A DNA stretch of 64,000 bases from Eledone cirrhosa. Lineage: Eukaryota. This document shows, piece by piece, positions 2,046 through 60,665 of this stretch. Under the pieces are notes generated by a model. It was not told where the DNA came from. It saw only the letters and a list, made by a program, of their open reading frames with translations, and made no database searches. Position numbers and translations under genes: made by a program. Each line of letters begins with the position of its first letter. Position 1 is the stretch's first letter. Location: contig OZ024746.1 in NCBI GenBank assembly GCA_964016885.1, positions 19,716,001-19,780,000 on the forward strand. Direction: 5' to 3'.

Positions 2046-3003
2046 TGCTTACTTTCTACTTTCTGTCAGATGTTTTATTCTGGCTTTACCTGAGTGTTTT
2101 CCAGTGTTTGGCTCGAGTTATGGAGGGCAGTTGCTCCCCTATTCTCCAGGATTATATGCCCATGCTCCAAGTAACCTATCCAACTTTATTTCATCTTTAA
2201 GGACTAACCCCATGAGATTTTATTTATTTATATTTTGTCTTTAAGTTTTCCTTCACTTTAATTATTTCACCAATTGGCAGCACTTTTTATAATAGATAGC
2301 CATAAAAGAAACCAACTTAATGTTTCTATTTTGAAACCAATTATATAAGCTTTGATAATCATAATAATACACAAACGAGCCAGTCAAAATAGTTTAATGT
2401 AAATAAATAAAGCTAAAGCATATAAATAATTCTCAAAAACTGCCAGAAAAAAAAGTGATATTGTATGTCAGGCTTCACAGGATACAACAGCAAGAAGTTG
2501 CCAACTTTGTAGCATAAAAAAGAGTGAGTCATGAATTTATCTGCCAGTCAAGAAGCAAGTGATTTTTAACATGAAGAAAGAAAGGTGAGAGAGAGGAAGA
2601 GGGGAGGAGGGATGGGTGAGAGAGAGGAAGAGGGGGAGGAGGGATGGGTGAGACCTAACCTTCATGGTTGAATTGTTAACAAGAAACATTTCTTTGTTAA
2701 CCATTTTAGCTTTGACAGTTTGACATGTTATAATCATTGACTTCCTAATATCCATTTTTTTCTTTTAAAGTAAATTATTTAGATATTAAGTACACAACCC
2801 AACTTAATTTAATGTTTCATATATTATAGGTTATCATCTTCAACAGTTTTCCATGCTGGTATTATCATCAACAAGAAAAAGCCACATATAAATAATAGAT
2901 TGGAAATACAAGTGAATTGGCTACTATAACATCTCCACACATATGTATTTTAGATAGTTAGGGAAGAACACATCGAACATTCATTTTGTTTTGAACTGTT
3001 TTG

Positions 3004-3053
3004 TTTTTACATTTGAAAAGAGGGTTGTAGCCCTGAAATATTATGTTGAAAAA
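3004..3053 (+). ncRNA. degenerate minimal type I hammerhead motif, U3-A8 core variant
   Basis: acat-TTGAAAA-g-aggg-ttgtag-ccct-GAAA-tatt-atgt; helix I acat/atgt, helix II aggg/ccct. The downstream tail recurs at ~57320-57410. Confidence 0.45.
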
Positions 3054-3393
3054 TGCCAGGTAAAAATTACTTTATTTTGTTTTATATGTCATCTTTCACC
3101 CTTTATATATTTCTATCACATTGTACTGGCTTTCTGAAACCTATCAGTCATTTATTACATCATCATCATCATCATTTCATTTTACATCCGCTTTTTCCCT
3201 GCTTGCAAGGGTGGGACAATACATATCTCACAATACTTCATATTAACTATACTACTTTATATATATATATATATATAGATATATATATATATATATATAT
3301 AACCAAAGATTAATATGGTTCATTGATTACTCAATGAATATAATTTTACAATAGATTAAAAGCACTCTACCAGGAAGTTTTCTGGAGTTATTA

Positions 3394-3629
3394 ATATTAT
3401 TCAAAATATTAATAAATGAAGACATTCACATAATCAAAATATATGTTTTATTATATATATATCGAAATCATCATCATCATCATCATCATCAACGTTTAAC
3501 GTCCGTGTTCCACGCTTGCATGGGTTTGGACGGGGGTATTCCCACTTGAGGCAAGAGTGATTGTCTTGAAATATATATAATAAAACATATATTTTGATTA
3601 TGTGAATGTCTTCATTTATTAATATTTTG

Positions 3630-3637
<8 letters not shown>
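3394..3637. repeat. ~70-bp inverted repeat (PLE-tail-like) interrupted by a family-C SINE 3' fragment (3468-3567)
   Basis: Arms 3394-3463 and 3568-3637 are reverse complements. The right arm begins GAAA-tatata-TA-ataaaac and resembles the tail after the HHR at 23690. Confidence 0.75.
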
Positions 3638-3673
<36 letters not shown>

Positions 3674-3762
3674 ACCTCCGATTCAACCCGGAATAACGTA
3701 CTATATATATATATATATTAGAAAGTGATTTTTTTTACAAAATGAAAAAAAACGAGTGAAAG

Positions 3763-4444
3763 TATAAGGAAAAAAGATAAAATCGAAAATGCAACTGGAT
3801 TCTTTTTTTATAAAAATTTATATTTATTTGGTTCCTTTACCAGTTTCGCAGTTCTTCTGCTTTTCAAAAGTAGAATTGAGATGGAGGGTTTGTGGTTTTT
3901 CTCGCATCTGGTTGGTGTTTGAATGTTACTTCTGTTTTATATGGAAAAAAAGTGGCTCGAAATGCTAGGTTTTTAGAGAAGTAATTCGGTTGGTGAATAA
4001 GTATAATAAATTTTGCGCCAGTTCGCGTTACAAAGTTCTTATTATATTTGCCTTCAAAAGAGGGGGGGGGGGGAGCTCAAGTTGTTTTTTTCATATATGA
4101 GTGAAGTTTGGTTATATACGAAAAAACAACCTGAGCCCCCCCCCCTCTTTTGAAGGCAAATATAATAAGAACTTTGTAACGTGAACTGGCGCAAAATTTA
4201 TTATACTTATTCACCAACCGAATTACTTCTCTAAAAACCTAGCATTTCGAGCCACTTTTTTTCCATATAAAACAGAAGTAACATTCAAACACCAACCAGA
4301 TGCGAGAAAAACCACAAACCCTCCATCTCAATTCTACTTTTGAAAAGCAGAAGAACTGCGAAACCGGTAAAGGAACCAAATAAATATATATTTTTATAAA
4401 AAAAGACTCCAGTTGCATTTTCGATTTCATCTTTTTTCCCTATA
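3763..4444. repeat. long near-perfect palindrome (~335-bp arms, ~11-bp spacer), probable inverted PLE pseudo-LTR pair
   Basis: 3763-4100 is the reverse complement of 4111-4444 with few mismatches; each arm has an HHR-like motif followed by AATAAA. Confidence 0.9.
4334..4376 (+). ncRNA. minimal type I hammerhead motif, U3-A8 core variant (mirror copy on minus strand at ~3832-3873)
   Basis: ctt-TTGAAAA-gcag-aagaa-ctgc-GAAA-ccgg-TA-aag: helix II gcag/ctgc, palindromic helix III ccgg, UA cleavage site, short helix I ctt/aag. Confidence 0.6.
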
Positions 4445-4686
4445 TATATATATATTGTTTCAGAAGATCCAGTTAAGGGTGAAAGCAGCGATTCTTTGCT
4501 TAAACTTTAATCTGTTATTTTAATAAATATTTGCTCTAGGGTTCTTATATATTTGATATATATTTATCCTTATCAAGCCCTCTTTGGATTTTAGTCTTCA
4601 TATTTATTATTATTACTATATATATATATATATATATTTATAGAGAGAGAGAGAGAGCATGGAAAATAGACGTTAAATGATGATGA

Positions 4687-26816: not shown

Positions 26817-27059
26817 CCAGTCAGCTAATCCAAAGCTTAAACACAGTATTAATGTGAAATTTCAGCACTTCTGTTTAGTGTTTAGTATGTACTAAACAAC
26901 TAGACAAAGTCAAAGAGAAATTTACCAATAAACTGAAGACAATAACAACAATAAAAATAAGGGCAAAATATTGTTTTAGAAAATTACAAGCAACATGTAA
27001 CCCCCTCCCTCCCTCCCCAGCCAGGCAAACAACATGAACACCTTAATGTTGGGATTGAG

Positions 27060-27480
27060 TAATGCTGGTGCCATAATAAAAAACACCCAGTCTATATAGT
27101 AAGGTGGTAATGCTGGTGACATAATAAAAAAAGTACCCAGTTTATATAGTAAGGTGGTAATGCTGGTGACATAATAAAAAAAGTACCCAGTTTATATAGT
27201 AAGGTGGTAATGCTGGTGACATAATAAAAAAAATACCCAGTTTATATAGTAAGGTGGTAATGCTGGTTACATAATAAAAAAAGTACCCAGTTTATATAGT
27301 AAGGTGGTAATGCTGGTGACATAATAAAAAACACCCAGTTTATATAGTAAGGTGGTAATGCTGGTGACATAATAAAAAAAGTACCCAGTTTATATAGTAA
27401 GGTGGTAATGCTGGTGACATAATAAAAAAACACCCAGTTTATATAGTAAGATGGTAATGCTGGTGACATAATAAAAAGCA
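27060..27480 (+). repeat. 48-50-bp minisatellite (~9 units) inside a family-C SINE (SINE continues to ~27612)
   Basis: Unit aatgctggtgacataataaaaaaagtacccagtttatatagtaaggtggt, followed by gtggttggcattagaaaggacatccagctgtagaaa and a (GAT)n tail. Confidence 0.9.
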
Positions 27481-28387: not shown

Positions 28388-29499
28388 TATGTTGATGATA
28401 TAAACATCGTAGTTAAAACACCCCCAAGAGAGAACAGTCAGGAATTAGAGAAAAACACAATGGAAAGCATCCAGCAAATAGCTAACTCCATCCACCAGAG
28501 TATTAGAGTTACTATAGACTACCCAAGCAAACACCCCAACCATCGATTACCTGTACTAGACACAGAGCTCTGGTTAGATACCATTAATAACAAAAAACAA
28601 ATCCTCCATTCCCATTATGCCAAACCCATGACTTCCAAATATCTGATCCACCGAAACTCAGCTGTTTTGGACCATACCAAAATCAACATACTGATTGCGG
28701 ATTTGGTACGGGTGATGAGAAACGTGTCCCGCATGTGCAACCCCGAAGAACTAGAGAGACACATACAACACTTCATCCACCGTATGCAGTTCTCTGGTTA
28801 CAATCAGAGAGATAAAATCAGAGTGTATAGAGGAGCCAGAACCAAATGGGGAAAAATGGTAAATAGTGACACAAATGGGACCTGCTCCTTGTATAGGAGC
28901 AAATTTTGGAATAGAATTGAAAGAACTAAGAATAAAGCTAATAGAATAAACTCATGGTATGATAGCAATAAATACCAGAGTGTAATGTTCATCGATACAA
29001 CCCCTAGAGGTGAATTAGCTTACAAAATTAGAAGGGCCCTAGATAAACATAAACTCAATATTAAGATAGTAGAAAGACCAGGTACCTCCATAAAAACACT
29101 TTTCAAAGACCTCCCTGTATAGATAAAAAATGTATAATCTGTAAATTAAGCCCCCATATTAACTGTAAAACTAGAAATGTAGTATATAGCATAAGATGTA
29201 CTGAAGGACAATGTAGAGATAAAAATATAGTGTACATAGGTGAGACAGCTCGTAGTATAGGGGAACGGATAAATTAACACTGGTGAGACCTTCAAGATAG
29301 TAAAGAATCATCTGTACTCTACCAACATGCTAAAATAGAACATAAGGGTAAATTAGAGAACATAGAAATAAAAATAAAATCTACACACAGAAAAGACGCA
29401 ATGTTTAGACAAATCACAGAGGCAATAAACATAAATGAATTACAACCAAAATTAAATAGAAAACATGAGTGGAACAGCAACATCACAACCTACAATTGA
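28388..29499 (+). pseudogene. PLE reverse transcriptase (motif 5 to thumb) + C-terminal GIY-YIG endonuclease, disrupted
   Basis: In frame from YVDDINIVV (28388) through ORF 28460-29122. After a frameshift near 29100: CIDKKCIICKLSPHINCKTRNVVYSIRCTEGQCRDKNIVYIGETARSIGERIN*HW*...QHAKIEH...RQITEAININELQPKLNRKHEW. Stops at 29275 and 29284. Confidence 0.9.
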
Positions 29500-29700: not shown

Positions 29701-29746
29701 CAGTCACTGAAGAGGTCACAGAATGTGTGACGAAAGAACTTGACAA
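29701..29746 (+). ncRNA. minimal hammerhead motif in the PLE 3' UTR
   Basis: gtca-CTGAAGA-g-gtcaca-gaatg-tgtgac-GAAA-gaact-tgac; copies at 38111-38156(+) and 37188-37233(-) read GAAA-gaac-TT-tgac. Confidence 0.65.
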
Positions 29747-32185: not shown

Positions 32186-32427
32186 TCCAAACTGGTCCTG
32201 TGGGATACATGGTACGGAGTGGTAAGCAGGACCAGATTTAGACCTTGGGGTGGGGGTAGTTCAGGTTTGGTGGGTCCCTCATATAACAACACACACACAC
32301 AAATATCATCAGCAACAGCACCATTTAACATCCATTTTGCATGCTAGTTTGGGTTAAATGAGTTTTTTTAGCTGTTTCTGGCTTGGTTTCTATGGCTGGA
32401 TGCCCTCCCTAATGCTACCCACACTTA

Positions 32428-33110
32428 CAGTGTGCACTGGGTGTTTTTTGTTGCAACACCTACACAACCATTTTATAGTGTGCACTGGATGTTTTTTGTT
32501 GCAACACCTAACAACCATTTTATAGTGTGCACTGGGTGTTTTTTGTTGCAACACCTAACAACTATTTTATAGTGTGCACTGGGTGTTTTTTGTTGCAACA
32601 CCTACACAACCATTTTATAGTGTGCACTGGGTGTTTTTTGTTGCAACACCTAACAACTATTTTATAGTGTGCACTGGGTGTTTTTTGTTGCAACACCTAC
32701 ACAACCATTTTATAGTGTGCACTGGGTGTTTTTTGTTGCAACACCTACACAACCATTTTATAGTGTGCACTGGGTGTTTTTTGTTGCAACACCTACACAA
32801 CCATTTTATAGTGTGCACTGGGTGTTTTTTGTTGCAACACCTCCACAACCATTTTATAGTGTGCACTGGGTGTTTTTTGTTGCAACACCTACACAACCAT
32901 TTTATAGTGTGCACTGGGTGTTTTTTGTTGCAACACCTACACAACCATTTTATAGTGTGCACTGGGTGTTTTTTGTTGCAACACCTACACAACCATTTTA
33001 TAGTGTGCACTGGGTGTTTTTTGTTGCAACACCTACACAACCATTTTATAGTGTGCACTGGGTGTTTTTTGTTGTAGCACCAAAACGACTACTTTACAGT
33101 GTGGACTGGG
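32428..33110 (-). repeat. 47-48-bp minisatellite (~14 units) inside a family-C SINE (SINE 3' end ~32320)
   Basis: Unit agtgtgcactgggtgttttttgttgcaacacctacacaaccattttat, adjacent to ggctggatgccctccctaatgc and catttaacatccattttgcatgctag. Confidence 0.92.
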
Positions 33111-37039: not shown

Positions 37040-38300
37040 GTTATACTTTGGGAGGGTCATGTTGCCAATAAGAAACACACGCACCAGTTGCTTTCACTTC
37101 AATTTATTATAATAAATTTATAAATTTAGGAATTTATAAATTTCCGGTTGGTTGGTTGGTTCCACAACCAGATGATTGTTTATATATTGTCAAAGTTCTT
37201 TCGTCACACATTCTGTGACCTCTTCAGTGACTGGGGGATTCTTTTCTTTGTTTTTGTGCCTCTCCTTTGTTCTGTCCTACGCCATCTTGTTTTTGTGTGT
37301 GTTGTGTGCTTAGTTTGTGCATGTGTTACATCCAGGTGTCTGTGTGTGTTTATATTTGTTTATTTATTTGTTTATTTACATGCTACTGGTTGGTTGTTTG
37401 TTCTATGTGCGTGTGTGTTTTCATTTTATCCTTAATTGTAAGTTGTGATGTTGCTGTTCCATTCATGTTTTCTATTTAATTTTGGTTGGAGTTCATTTAT
37501 GTTTATTGCCTCTGTGATTTGACTAAACATTGCGTCTTTTCTGTGTGTAGATTCTATTTTTATTTCTATGTTCTCTAATTTACCCTTATGTTCTATTTTA
37601 GCATGTTGGTAGAGTACAGATGATTCTTTACTATCTTGAAGGTGTCGCCAGTGTTCATTTATCCGTTCCCCTATACTACGAGCTGTCTCACCTATGTACA
37701 CTATATCCTTAAGAATATAGTGTACATATAAAATAGAACATGCTAAAATAGAACATAAGGGTAAATTAGAGAACATAGAAATAAAAATAGAATCTACACA
37801 CAGAAAAGACGCAATGTTTAGTCAAATCACAGAGGCAATAAACATAAATGAACTCCAACCAAAATTAAATAGAAAACATGAATGGAACAGCAACATCACA
37901 ACTTACAATTAAGGACAAAATGAAAACACACACGCACATAGAACAAACAACCAACCAGTAACATGTAAATAAACAAATAAATAAACAAATATAAACACAC
38001 ACAGACACCCGGATGTAACACATGCACAAACTAAGCACACAACACACACAAAAACAAGATGGTGTAGGACAGAACAAAGGAGAAGCACAAAACCAAAGAA
38101 AAGAATCCCCCAGTCACTGAAGAGGTCACAGAATGTGTGACGAAAGAACTTTGACAATATATAAACAATCATTTGGTTGTGGAACCAACCAACCGGAAAT
38201 TTATAAATTCCTAAATTTATAAATTTATTATAATAAATTGAAGTGAAAGCAACTGGTGCGTGTGTTTCTTATTGGCAACATGACCCTCCCAAAGTATAAC
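37040..38300. mobile_element. inverted (head-to-head) dimer of PLE 3' halves, ~1.26-kb palindrome
   Basis: 37040-37706 is the reverse complement of PLE ~29225-29889 (GIY-YIG open: YIGETARSIGERINEHWRH); 37737-38300 is the forward copy of ~29323-29889. Confidence 0.93.
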
Positions 38301-57230: not shown

Positions 57231-59654
57231 CTAACTGGTCTAAAATATGCATCTGTATACCATAGGCATGTTTACATCATACGCACCTGTATATATATAT
57301 TTCATAGGCATGTGTATATACTGGGTAAAACATTACTTTGTTTTGTTTTATTTGTCATCTTTTGCCCTTTATATATTTCTACTACACTGTACCAGCTTTC
57401 TGAAATATTTATCATGTACTTCTTTTTATTCAAAAGATGGTTGGGTGAAACTTGAGTGAGATTTGACTGCTATTTCAAACAGGTCAAATGATCATATAGA
57501 GGCTCATACATAATTAATTGGAATATTTTTTGTTTTATTTTGTTTTAGTTCTTTTTTTTTAAATCTGATTCTGAACTGAAGACCAAATAAAAGAGAGCAG
57601 GCAAGTGTTAAAAAAAAACAAAGTAAGAGACTCCAAAGAAGTAAATAACATCTGTATAATATCAGATTTATATTTTTGGAAGTAATGGCAACTTCTTAGA
57701 AGTAAGTTAGTTGTTTTAGTAGGACAGGAGTTACATAGATAACAGATAAAAAAGTTTTTGTTTTCATTTTGTTTTTTAAGTTACTTTTTTTTTTTTTCAT
57801 AGTAAGGAAATGAAGGCTTGCTATTGGATGCTGTCTGCCAGTACAAACTCACATAAACAAACATGTATGACTCACAGAAGGATGTTCCTTCCCTCAGCAA
57901 CAACCAAGTAAAAGGGAGTGAAAAAAATAGAAATAAGCAAGAAGTGAAGGTAGGGTAGGTGTTTGTATGTATTGAAACAGGGGTGGGGGTGGAATAGTGG
58001 CCTGCTGACCTATTCCAGAACACCTTATGCTCTTCTGCCAATCCCTTTCCTCAAACAGAATTCACCAGAGTGAAGTGGTTGTAAGAGAAAAAGGAAGAGG
58101 AAGAGGAGGAGAAAGAGGAAGAGGGGGAGGAGATAGACATCTGATAGCACCAAGCCAACCACTTCAGAGAGTTTTGTAAGACATAGACTGCTAAATCTCT
58201 CTCTTTATACAGATAAGACTAAGGGATAATGTTCCTCCTACAGTCTTTTTATAGCAATAATAACAAAGAAAAAAAAACAACAAAAAAGCAAACCAAGATA
58301 CAGGAGTGCTTATCTGACAACCCCAGCATGTGTGAGAAAGGGGTTTGTGAAAACTCCATTGACATTTTCATACATATCTTGACAAAGATCATGATAAAAA
58401 CTAGAAATTATTAAAAATAAACTTTCCCTATCTCACTACCCCATATCATCATCACCATCCCCATTATTATCATCATCAGATTTAAAAGTTTTTCATCCCA
58501 TGCTGATAAATGAGTACAAGCAGCTTTCTGGGGGTTTCTCTTTTTTTCCCCATGTTACCAAGTACAGTGATCATTTGCTGGCATGTTCTTGATTCCTTGA
58601 CTTCAATAATTTTACAAATGAGTCATTAAACCAGTAAATTATGACAACACCTTTCAGGTTTTTCTTCCTTGTCAACAAAAGTTTAACAGAGGTCAAGTTA
58701 ACCCAGTTAGTCTGTAGCTGTAGTCTCTTCTCACAGAATGTTGACACTAACTACTATTAGCTATTTTGGTAGAGATAAAATATAGAAATTATGCTTGGGG
58801 AGGGGGAGGGAAGTTTTATTGTTTTAGTAATATTTGGTCATTTATTTTTATTTTTTCTCTTTTTTTTTTTTTACCAAGCAATATTTTATTTCTTTGAAAT
58901 AGAATCTCTTTAATAACAATTATAACCACCGCCTCTAATAACCACAACCACACATACACATACATACATACTCAGACTCACACACCCACACATACAGACT
59001 CAGACACACACAGACGTACACATACACCCTGCTACTGCTAGCAATCTTTAAAACAGTACCTATTCTCATATAATAGAAAACACATTGCAGAATATCTAAG
59101 TATAGATAGTGAGGACATCACTATTAAAGTAAATTCATATACCATGTCAACAAAAAAGCTTTAAGTTTTTGATTTGTTTGTTTGTTTGTTAATATAGAGT
59201 TAGCTGCCCGCATGTGCGAGCCCCACAAGGTGGAGTAGCTGTTCCAACACGTCTCCCTCACTGTGCTCCGGGCCAATGTATTCTCCATCCTGTTGGCCAG
59301 GAGCAAGAGACAGAGGGTAAGTTAATTTCCTCTTCTCACCCCACTTTCACTCGTTTATTATAATACTGCAGCAGCAACCACTACCACAATGGATCTGATG
59401 GTTTTTGATATGCTATACATATCGCCACAAATATAGACCTTTTTTTTTTAAATACAGTCAGTTGAAAAATATCCTCTGAATTTTGGTTTAATTTAAATGT
59501 TCAATTAAGGAAAGCATAAGAAGAAGTCAACTAATTCCATCAATTGAGAAGATCCCAAACCTCACTCGCTTACCAAGTGGTGTGGAACTTGTCAAATCGG
59601 ACCAAGGAAACAATGTTTCCATTGGTCTTCCCATTGGAGGAAGTAATGAAGTTA

Positions 59655-60665
59655 AATATTAGGATCATTATCTCAAAAATGAGATGACACAATAAATATT
59701 AGGATCATGACCTCAAAGATGAGATAACACAATAAATATTAGGATCATGGACCTCAAAGATGAGATGACACAATAAATATTAGGATCATGACCTCAAAGA
59801 TGAGATGACACAATAAATATTAGGATCATGGACCTCAAAGATGAGATGACACAATAAATATTAGGATCATGACCTCAAAGATGAGATAACACAATAAATA
59901 TTAGGATCATGACCTCAAAGATGAGATAACACAATAAATATTAGGATCATGTACCTCAAAGATGAGATGACACAATAAATATTAGGATCATGACCTCAAA
60001 GATGAGATGACACAATAAATATTAGGATCATGACCTCAAAGATGAGATAACACAATAAATATTAGGATCATGGACCTCAAAGATGAGATGACACAATAAA
60101 TATTAGGATCATGACCTCAAAGATGAGATGACACAATAAATATTAGGATCATGGACCTCAAAGATGAGATGACACAATAAATATTAGGATCATGACCTCA
60201 AAGATGAGATAACACAATAAATATTAGGATCATGGACCTCAAAGATGAGATGACACAATAAATATTAGGATCATGGACCTCAAAGATGAGATGACACAAT
60301 AAATATTAGGATCATGGGCCTCAAAGATGAGCTGACACAATAAATATTAGGATCATGACCTCAAAGATGAGATGACACAATAAATATTAGGATCATGACC
60401 TCAAAGATGAGATAACACAATAAATATTAGGATCATGACCTCAAAGATGAGATGACGCAATAAATATTAGGATCATGACCTCAAAGATGAGATGACACAA
60501 TAAATATTAGGATCATGACCTCAAAGATGAGCTGACACAATAAATATTAGGATCATGGGCCTCAAAGATGAGATGATAATAAATATTAGGATCATGACCT
60601 CAAAGATGAGATGACACAATAAATATTAGGATCATGACCTCAAAGATGAGATGACGCAGAATAAA
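59655..60665. repeat. 40-41-bp minisatellite, ~25 units
   Basis: Unit aaatattaggatcatg(g)acctcaaagatgagat(g/a)acacaat, with no unique spacers. Confidence 0.95.

Follow-up and report, generated by a model that had tools for sequence, protein, structure and literature searches.

The 64,000-nt window analysed here, the whole stretch of Eledone cirrhosa DNA under study, contains two minimal type I hammerhead motifs, designated A and B, whose cores carry U3-A8 in place of C3-G8. We consider it probable, at roughly 0.88, that these are the hammerheads found at the 3' pLTR of two families of Penelope-like elements (PLEs), that U3-A8 is a state inherited within those families, that full-length tandem elements are likely to cut their precursor RNA slowly and as dimers, and that the truncated copies in the window are likely to be silent. 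Both motifs belong to dispersed repeat families of the 3.0-Gb host genome, in which a first look yielded 2,495 candidate copies of A and 1,822 of B. The best-scoring copies of A are 94-100% alike and those of B mostly 81-88% alike, and thus family B is the older.

The motifs in the window

Motif A (4332..4375, plus strand) was established by direct reading and has 4,930 exact matches in the genome. Positions U3 to A9 read TTGAAAA (4340-4346), helix II is a 4-bp stem, GCAG/CTGC (4347-4359), and there follow GAAA (4360-4363), CCGG (4364-4367), U16.1-A17 (4368-4369) and the helix I partner (4370-4375). A palindromic ACCGGU replaces helix III, and there is no extra base after A9; cleavage is predicted to occur after A17, at 4369. 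The core is repeated, as the earlier note had seen, in the mirror arm, where a copy of the motif occupies 3832..3875 on the minus strand (U3 at 3867). This copy differs by C to T at 3842, inside the helix III palindrome, which is thereby weakened (self-duplex -3.2 kcal/mol vs -8.3 kcal/mol for motif A).

Motif A and its mirror copy lie in the arms (4136-4444 and 3763-4071, respectively) of I1, an inverted repeat of 309 nt with 98% identity. Comparison with the 3' end of the full-length element L232, described below, shows what this structure is. The left part (3719..4103, minus strand, 81% to L232) is a 5'-truncated family A 3' end that reaches the true element end at a (TA)n tract, and the right part (4114..4444, plus strand, 83% to L232) an inverted second copy that lacks the last ~45 nt and is again followed by (TA)n. 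The I1 arms and the comparison of ends also mark out a one-sided tail of ~44 nt (3719..3762, minus strand), present on a single arm only. On this sequence evidence the insertion reads as a 5'-truncated end with its inverted copy, within a (TA)n tract. A one-sided tail of this kind, and the whole layout of truncated 3' end, inverted copy and tail, are described for PLE insertions by Craig et al. 2021 (PMC8557442). In whole-element folds the window copy of A pairs fully with its mirror, whichever strand is taken, and in a read-through transcript the hammerhead is predicted by the folding model to be buried in a long (309-bp) hairpin. An abundant repeat, with 30 matches across many of the loci compared, adjoins the right end of the insertion (4457-4535); the same repeat makes a small palindrome at 1120-1209.

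Motif B (3004..3052, plus strand; 257 exact-pattern matches among the copies in the genome, where the candidates number 1,822) is a minimal hammerhead without loop 3, which is reduced to A-U-A-U. Its core, TTGAAAA (3013-3019), is followed by an extra G after A9 (3020), by helix II, AGGG(T)/(G)CCCT (3021-3034), with A10.1-U11.1 at its base, by GAAA (3035-3038), TA, and U16.1-U17 (3041-3042); helix I is ACAT/ATGT (3009-3012/3043-3046). Cleavage is predicted after U17, at 3042. Direct reading thus bears out both UUGAAAA motifs of the earlier note, the core of A at 4340 and that of B at 3013. In an alternative register for B, G8-A9 would lie two bases later, with additional bases at 7 and ahead of G12; it was not adopted, as it calls for three insertions and would give U3-G8 in most copies. 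The fragment that hosts motif B (2861..3250, plus strand; 69-77% to L032, L112, L139 and L170) is a 5'-truncated family B 3' end that begins in the last GIY-YIG codons. The remnant of the GIY-YIG frame reads IIINKKKPHINNRLE, and the motif stands ~100 nt after this decayed frame. The fragment is split at about 3156-3217 by another short repeat and ends near (TA)n. A short second piece of family B, consisting only of sequence downstream of the hammerhead, is found at 57324-57405.

The window was scanned with a descriptor for the type I minimal hammerhead that allowed any letter at positions 3 and 8 and required a palindromic loop 3. Motifs A and B were its sole matches; the mirror copy and three canonical-core hammerheads in the window are missed because of the loop 3 requirement. 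In 60 block-wise Markov shuffles of the window the strict descriptor gave 0 matches, and a loose descriptor gave ~0.2 matches per shuffled window over all states of positions 3 and 8 and 0.03 for U3-A8; the presence of the motifs is far above chance. In an Rfam 15 scan (E<=5) a hammerhead family is absent among the 150 of 164 matches listed, which are miRNA-like and lie on palindromes and microsatellites.

Family A

Family A is a Penelope-like element of the C-terminal endonuclease (EN) type, with a reverse transcriptase (RT) and a GIY-YIG domain between direct terminal repeats. The best evidence is the locus L232, where an open frame of 938 aa contains RVT_1 (E 2e-6; 28.0 bits, slightly below the 29.6 cut-off) and GIY-YIG (28.3 bits, above the cut-off), in the order RT, a cysteine linker of the form C-x4-C-x2-C, and GIY-YIG. 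This frame is flanked by direct repeats (at least 250 nt, 99.6%), each of which carries motif A in the sense of the frame, 4,979 nt apart. Compared with other copies, this one has a short gap in its endonuclease, which may therefore not be active. In the longer copies of the family the motif is preceded by RT and GIY-YIG frames of the same sense; L143 has both domains in a single frame, and the motif follows the GIY-YIG frame by ~0.9-1.5 kb in L022, L029, L092/L143, L144, L145, L146 and L153. By its cysteine linker family A may belong to the Neptune clade, a tentative name that goes by this motif. Two other loci with same-strand pairs of motif A, 3.9 and 4.8 kb apart (L141 and L142), proved not to be full-length elements.

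Among 30 unselected A loci, none has a same-strand A partner within 1.5 kb, and six have one on the opposite strand. A non-LTR retrozyme was rejected as the identity of family A on the first of these counts and on the lack of a tandem array at the locus. Two further arrangements of family A were noted in the genome. On contig C8 (39.5-40.1 Mb; L011, L015, L017-L019, L026-L028) a palindrome of family A is part of a unit that recurs at intervals of ~50-160 kb, a large tandem segmental duplication. At L005/L014 (C3:91.763-91.766 Mb) two outward-facing family A ends enclose a fragment of a non-LTR element, whose endonuclease motif we take to be the restriction-like RPDG type.

Twenty-four of the best 30 of 150 scored GIY-YIG matches in the genome belong to C and D, two sister families of A whose endonucleases share 52% and 46% identity, respectively, with its own.

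Family B

The longer copies of family B consist of a decayed GIY-YIG frame with the motif downstream, at 118-133 nt after the GIY-YIG remnant in L139, L163, L170 and L178. Judged by these sequences, family B is a second, different PLE family. GIY-YIG remnants, and no full-length element, were found for it among the genome loci. When family A proteins were compared with family B loci by tblastn, an RT-like match was obtained in L139, but on the opposite strand, and it was not assigned to B. The B endonuclease is 22-35% identical to those of A, C and D, over short stretches only. The nearest relative seen is family G (L193), with 44% endonuclease identity. No hammerhead was recognised for families G, E or F, whose 3' ends were either not reached or not recognised. 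Family E (L230:775-4062, in C1:83812000-83820000) is a more distant PLE whose 1,096-aa open frame comprises RT, a cysteine linker and GIY-YIG; the 3' region of the element enters a microsatellite, and a hammerhead was not recognised there.

The earlier note had held that the helices and flanks of the two motifs are unrelated, and this stands: outside the core A and B have nothing in common (best blastn E 0.046), and they come from two different PLE families. Since the endonuclease of B shows such low identity to those of A, C and D, and over short stretches, U3-A8 probably arose independently in B.

The state of positions 3 and 8

U3-A8 characterises both family A and family B and is not a product of decay. 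For family A, a 32-nt pattern with all letters fixed except position 3 or 8 gave 5,014 matches in the genome, of which 4,930 (98%) are U3-A8. Another letter at position 3 is found in 47 (27 C, 11 G and 9 A), every one with A8, another letter at position 8 in 37 (20 G, 10 C and 7 T), and C3-G8 in none. For family B, the exact pattern gave 257 matches, with U3 in 229 and U3-A8 in about 227 (about 88%); the 28 without U3 are 27 C3-A8 and one C3-G8. A looser pattern for B found only four copies with G8, of which two have C3 and two U3. Exact patterns favour young copies near the window's own, and C3-G8 subfamilies at a greater distance may have escaped these counts. The earlier note's proposal of fixed variants rather than decayed copies is upheld, and a C3-G8 consensus, which it had named among the findings that would speak against it, is not what either family has.

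It had also described the double change as compensatory. That description is borne out only in part, as a B subfamily has amplified with the C3-A8 mismatch (27/257). Both motifs, and the majority of each family, have the YUGANRA and GAAA...UH boxes and a Watson-Crick pair between positions 3 and 8; the C3-A8 subfamily of B lacks the pair. The closeness of the two motifs (1.4 kb), offered as further evidence, has no force, as ~8 such pairs are expected by chance genome-wide (4,930 A copies x 2.8 kb / 3.0 Gb x 1,822 B candidates).

Single changes within young family A, ~0.9% at position 3 and ~0.7% at position 8, reflect the master sequence only and not selection. In family B, 1/319 core letters are off the column majority, vs 23/232 in helix II and 32/116 in loop II, in 29 of 30 blast-picked copies; this low core divergence counts in favour of the main reading but is confounded by the A/T-richness of the core, since variation is low in A/T columns of the flanks as well, and by the choice of copies for their likeness to the window.

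Sister families and other core variants

Families C and D keep U3, U4, G5, A6, A8, A9 and the ACCGGU palindrome of family A, and differ from it in N7, loop II and the flanks; one helix II pair is changed on both sides between A and C, from G-C to U-A. Core and palindrome thus persist among families whose endonucleases are 46-67% identical and whose flanks have diverged. As U3-A8 is common to A and to its sister families, it is inherited and old within that clade. Family C (L218:1313, L219, L222, L223) is the most abundant sister family counted, with 6,253 matches; among the first 100, U3 is present in 98 and A8 in all 100. In 98 of the same 100 the normally invariant A13 is replaced by C, giving GCAA for GAAA, and no A13C hammerhead was found in a literature search. 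Family D (L215:760, L225:718, L227:779) has 680 matches, with U3-A8 in 96 of the first 100; it has U7, its helix II has two opposed U residues at the base, and its direct helix I is only ~2 bp long.

The C3-A8 copies of family B (L126, L140, L154-L179) were placed in a midpoint-rooted tree built from 86 loci, reduced to 81 copies by the removal of 5 duplicates; positions 3 and 8 were masked. Of the 25 C3 rows, 22 fall on one branch, with support 99/88. The tree needs five label changes at C3, against a mean of 21.6 when labels are shuffled, and 0/500 shuffles were as low; in this sample C3 copies were deliberately over-sampled and some rows contain unrelated flank. Since the C3 copies cluster on one supported branch, a master with an unpaired C3-A8 has spread. 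For both C3-A8 in B and A13C in C, either the change is tolerated or cutting is dispensable.

Canonical C3-G8 hammerhead families coexist with these in the same genome and window. One is a further PLE family, with hammerheads at 29707 (plus), 37199 (minus) and 38117 (plus), including one inverted pair; GIY-YIG remnants are found at 29033-29496, 37435-37803 and 37736-37909, and the hammerhead lies ~200 nt past GIY-YIG and has a non-palindromic loop 3 (GAAC). Between motifs A and B is an unrelated palindrome, I2 (3389..3642, no strand assigned), the arms of which, from GAAATATATATA onward, contain a third hammerhead family, of the canonical C3-G8 type, but no more than its 3' half; the centre of the palindrome is an unrelated short repeat. 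Relatives with CTGATGA or CTGACGA cores are found in L009, L032, L087, L217 and L221. The window also has young tandem arrays at 59653-60655, 32425-33110 and 27059-27477, with units of 40, 48 and 50 nt and 95-96% identity.

Proposed mechanism and alternatives

In the scheme that we favour, a transcript spanning both terminal repeats would hold two motifs, which could pair through their palindromes (ACCGGU in A, AUAU in B) to form helix III. U3-A8 would take the place of C3-G8 in the core, and the RNA would be cut after position 17 in the dimer; the scheme is modelled on PLE hammerheads already in the literature. A 2017 study by Lunse et al. reportedly shows, to go by its title, that variants of PLE hammerheads are cleaved as dimers. 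The placement in the pLTR, sense to the RT and GIY-YIG frame, is seen for A in both repeats of L232; B stands after a GIY-YIG remnant. When two A motifs are cofolded, both helices II form together with the intermolecular ACCGGU helix, at -19.1 vs 2 x -5.7 kcal/mol. For B the cofold did not give a hammerhead dimer, and the AUAU duplex is at +1.6 kcal/mol. Helix II is present in every fold. Helix I is short; it forms in the B monomer and is absent from the predicted A monomer and A dimer, and in A it amounts to 3+3 bp by inspection. Because the window copy of A is fully paired with its mirror and the window copy of B is a lone truncated one, these particular copies are likely to be silent.

It is possible, although we think it doubtful, that the motifs descend from PLE hammerheads in which cutting is no longer needed. 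U3-A8 would then be a step of drift, and the motif would either serve as a signal (structural, for dimerisation or for protein binding) or simply be carried along. The amplified C3-A8 subfamily of B, the fixation of A13C in family C and the weak helices of family D all point this way. PLE minimal hammerheads are, moreover, reported to cut poorly even as dimers, in a study that leaves room for other functions (PMC4209133), and Naiad PLEs are described in PMC8557442 as having spread without canonical hammerheads. Against it is the retention of core and palindrome across families A, C and D, while their flanks diverged. U3-A8 and U10.1-U11.1 are described as tolerated, in the part of Perreault et al. 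2011 (PMC3088659) that deals with such changes, and the coexistence of C3-G8 families in the genome implies that the core has not been generally lost. A related and slightly more tentative idea is that the genome holds a natural allelic series of PLE hammerheads losing the need to cut, with the motif kept for pairing of RNA copies or for binding of an element protein. The members of such a series would be the C3-G8 families, the U3-A8 families, the family with both U3-A8 and A13C (>6,000 copies) and the amplified subfamily with unpaired C3-A8.

Slow cutting of dimeric precursor RNA by full-length elements nevertheless remains our preferred reading. It is very improbable that the motifs are chance look-alikes in AT-rich repeat DNA, or that the palindrome is a foldback or MITE-type DNA transposon. 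TTGAAAA as a bare word occurs 21 times in the window, the monomer folding energies of the motifs are unremarkable (z -0.75 to -1.65) and a long palindrome makes up the A insertion; however, the full descriptor is almost never matched in shuffled sequence, the arms derive from the 3' end of an element with RT and GIY-YIG, of which L232 is a full-length example that refutes this reading, and only the six of 30 unselected A loci mentioned above have an opposite-strand partner nearby. Least probable of all is that individual C3-G8 copies decayed once inserted, by two changes from C/G to T/A. Such changes would follow the usual drift from GC to AT, but this reading is refuted by the counts of C3-G8 (0/5,014 in A and 1/257 in B) and of U3-A8.

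Comparison with known hammerheads

The U3-A8 variant is itself not new, and families A and B are two more families of a variant already described. The earlier note took it to be rare. Among PLEs it is not rare: Cervera and de la Pena 2014 (PMC4209133) give a U3-A8 descriptor with about 1,300 matches in Schistosoma PLE hammerheads, for which they report low dimer activity. The note's remark that CUGANGA searches miss such variants is right in so far as searches of that form alone undercount the hammerheads of this genome, to which two families with >5,000 copies are added here, and does not hold as a gap in method, since that descriptor was already published. A natural U3-A8 is also recorded, and cited as active in vitro in earlier work, by Perreault et al. 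2011 (PMC3088659); the covariation is the same, and section 8 of that paper makes no tie to PLE ends or dimer-dependent forms. Neither an octopus nor any other entry for the present families was found in the part of supplementary file 2 of PMC4209133 that was examined, and a literature search on octopus Penelope hammerheads gave none on these motifs, judged by title and start of abstract.

The closest published systems are the Cercyon PLEs of Schistosoma mansoni (PMC4209133), which share with A and B the covariation of positions 3 and 8. They occur mostly as single truncated copies, with opposite-strand pairs 100-700 bp apart, as do the families in this genome; the host and the PLE families differ. 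With motif B they have in common an extra base after A9, the lack of loop 3 and a palindromic 15.2-16.2; B differs from them in A10.1-U11.1 for the usual G-C and in a shorter helix II. The supplement also contains a PLE-linked motif, S. mansoni(4), with an identical UUGAAAA core and one extra base. Motif A is nearer to the PLE entries of the shrimp Marsupenaeus japonicus and of Saccoglossus in the same source, which likewise lack the extra base after A9 and have a short helix II, GAAA followed by a 4-nt palindrome, and A at position 17. Those entries have a C3-G8 core, whereas motif A combines their plan with U3-A8. The usual PLE hammerhead has both an extra base after A9 and G10.1-C11.1; A has the G-C without the extra base, B the extra base with A-U, and both exceptions (no extra base, and a non-G-C 10.1/11.1) are present in the published alignment (PMC4209133).

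At the level of the element, family A resembles the Neptune/Nematis-type PLEs with C-terminal GIY-YIG that are treated by Craig et al. 2021 (PMC8557442). The likeness extends to the order of RT, cysteine linker and GIY-YIG, the hammerhead near the 3' end, the inverted truncated copy, the one-sided tail and the microsatellite targets. The cellular role of PLE hammerheads is stated there to be an open question, and the part of the present results able to help with it is the natural series of core variants. Related families in one genome differ at positions 3, 8, 13 and 10.1/11.1, and all of them have spread; they are ready-made constructs with which the need for cutting can be approached.
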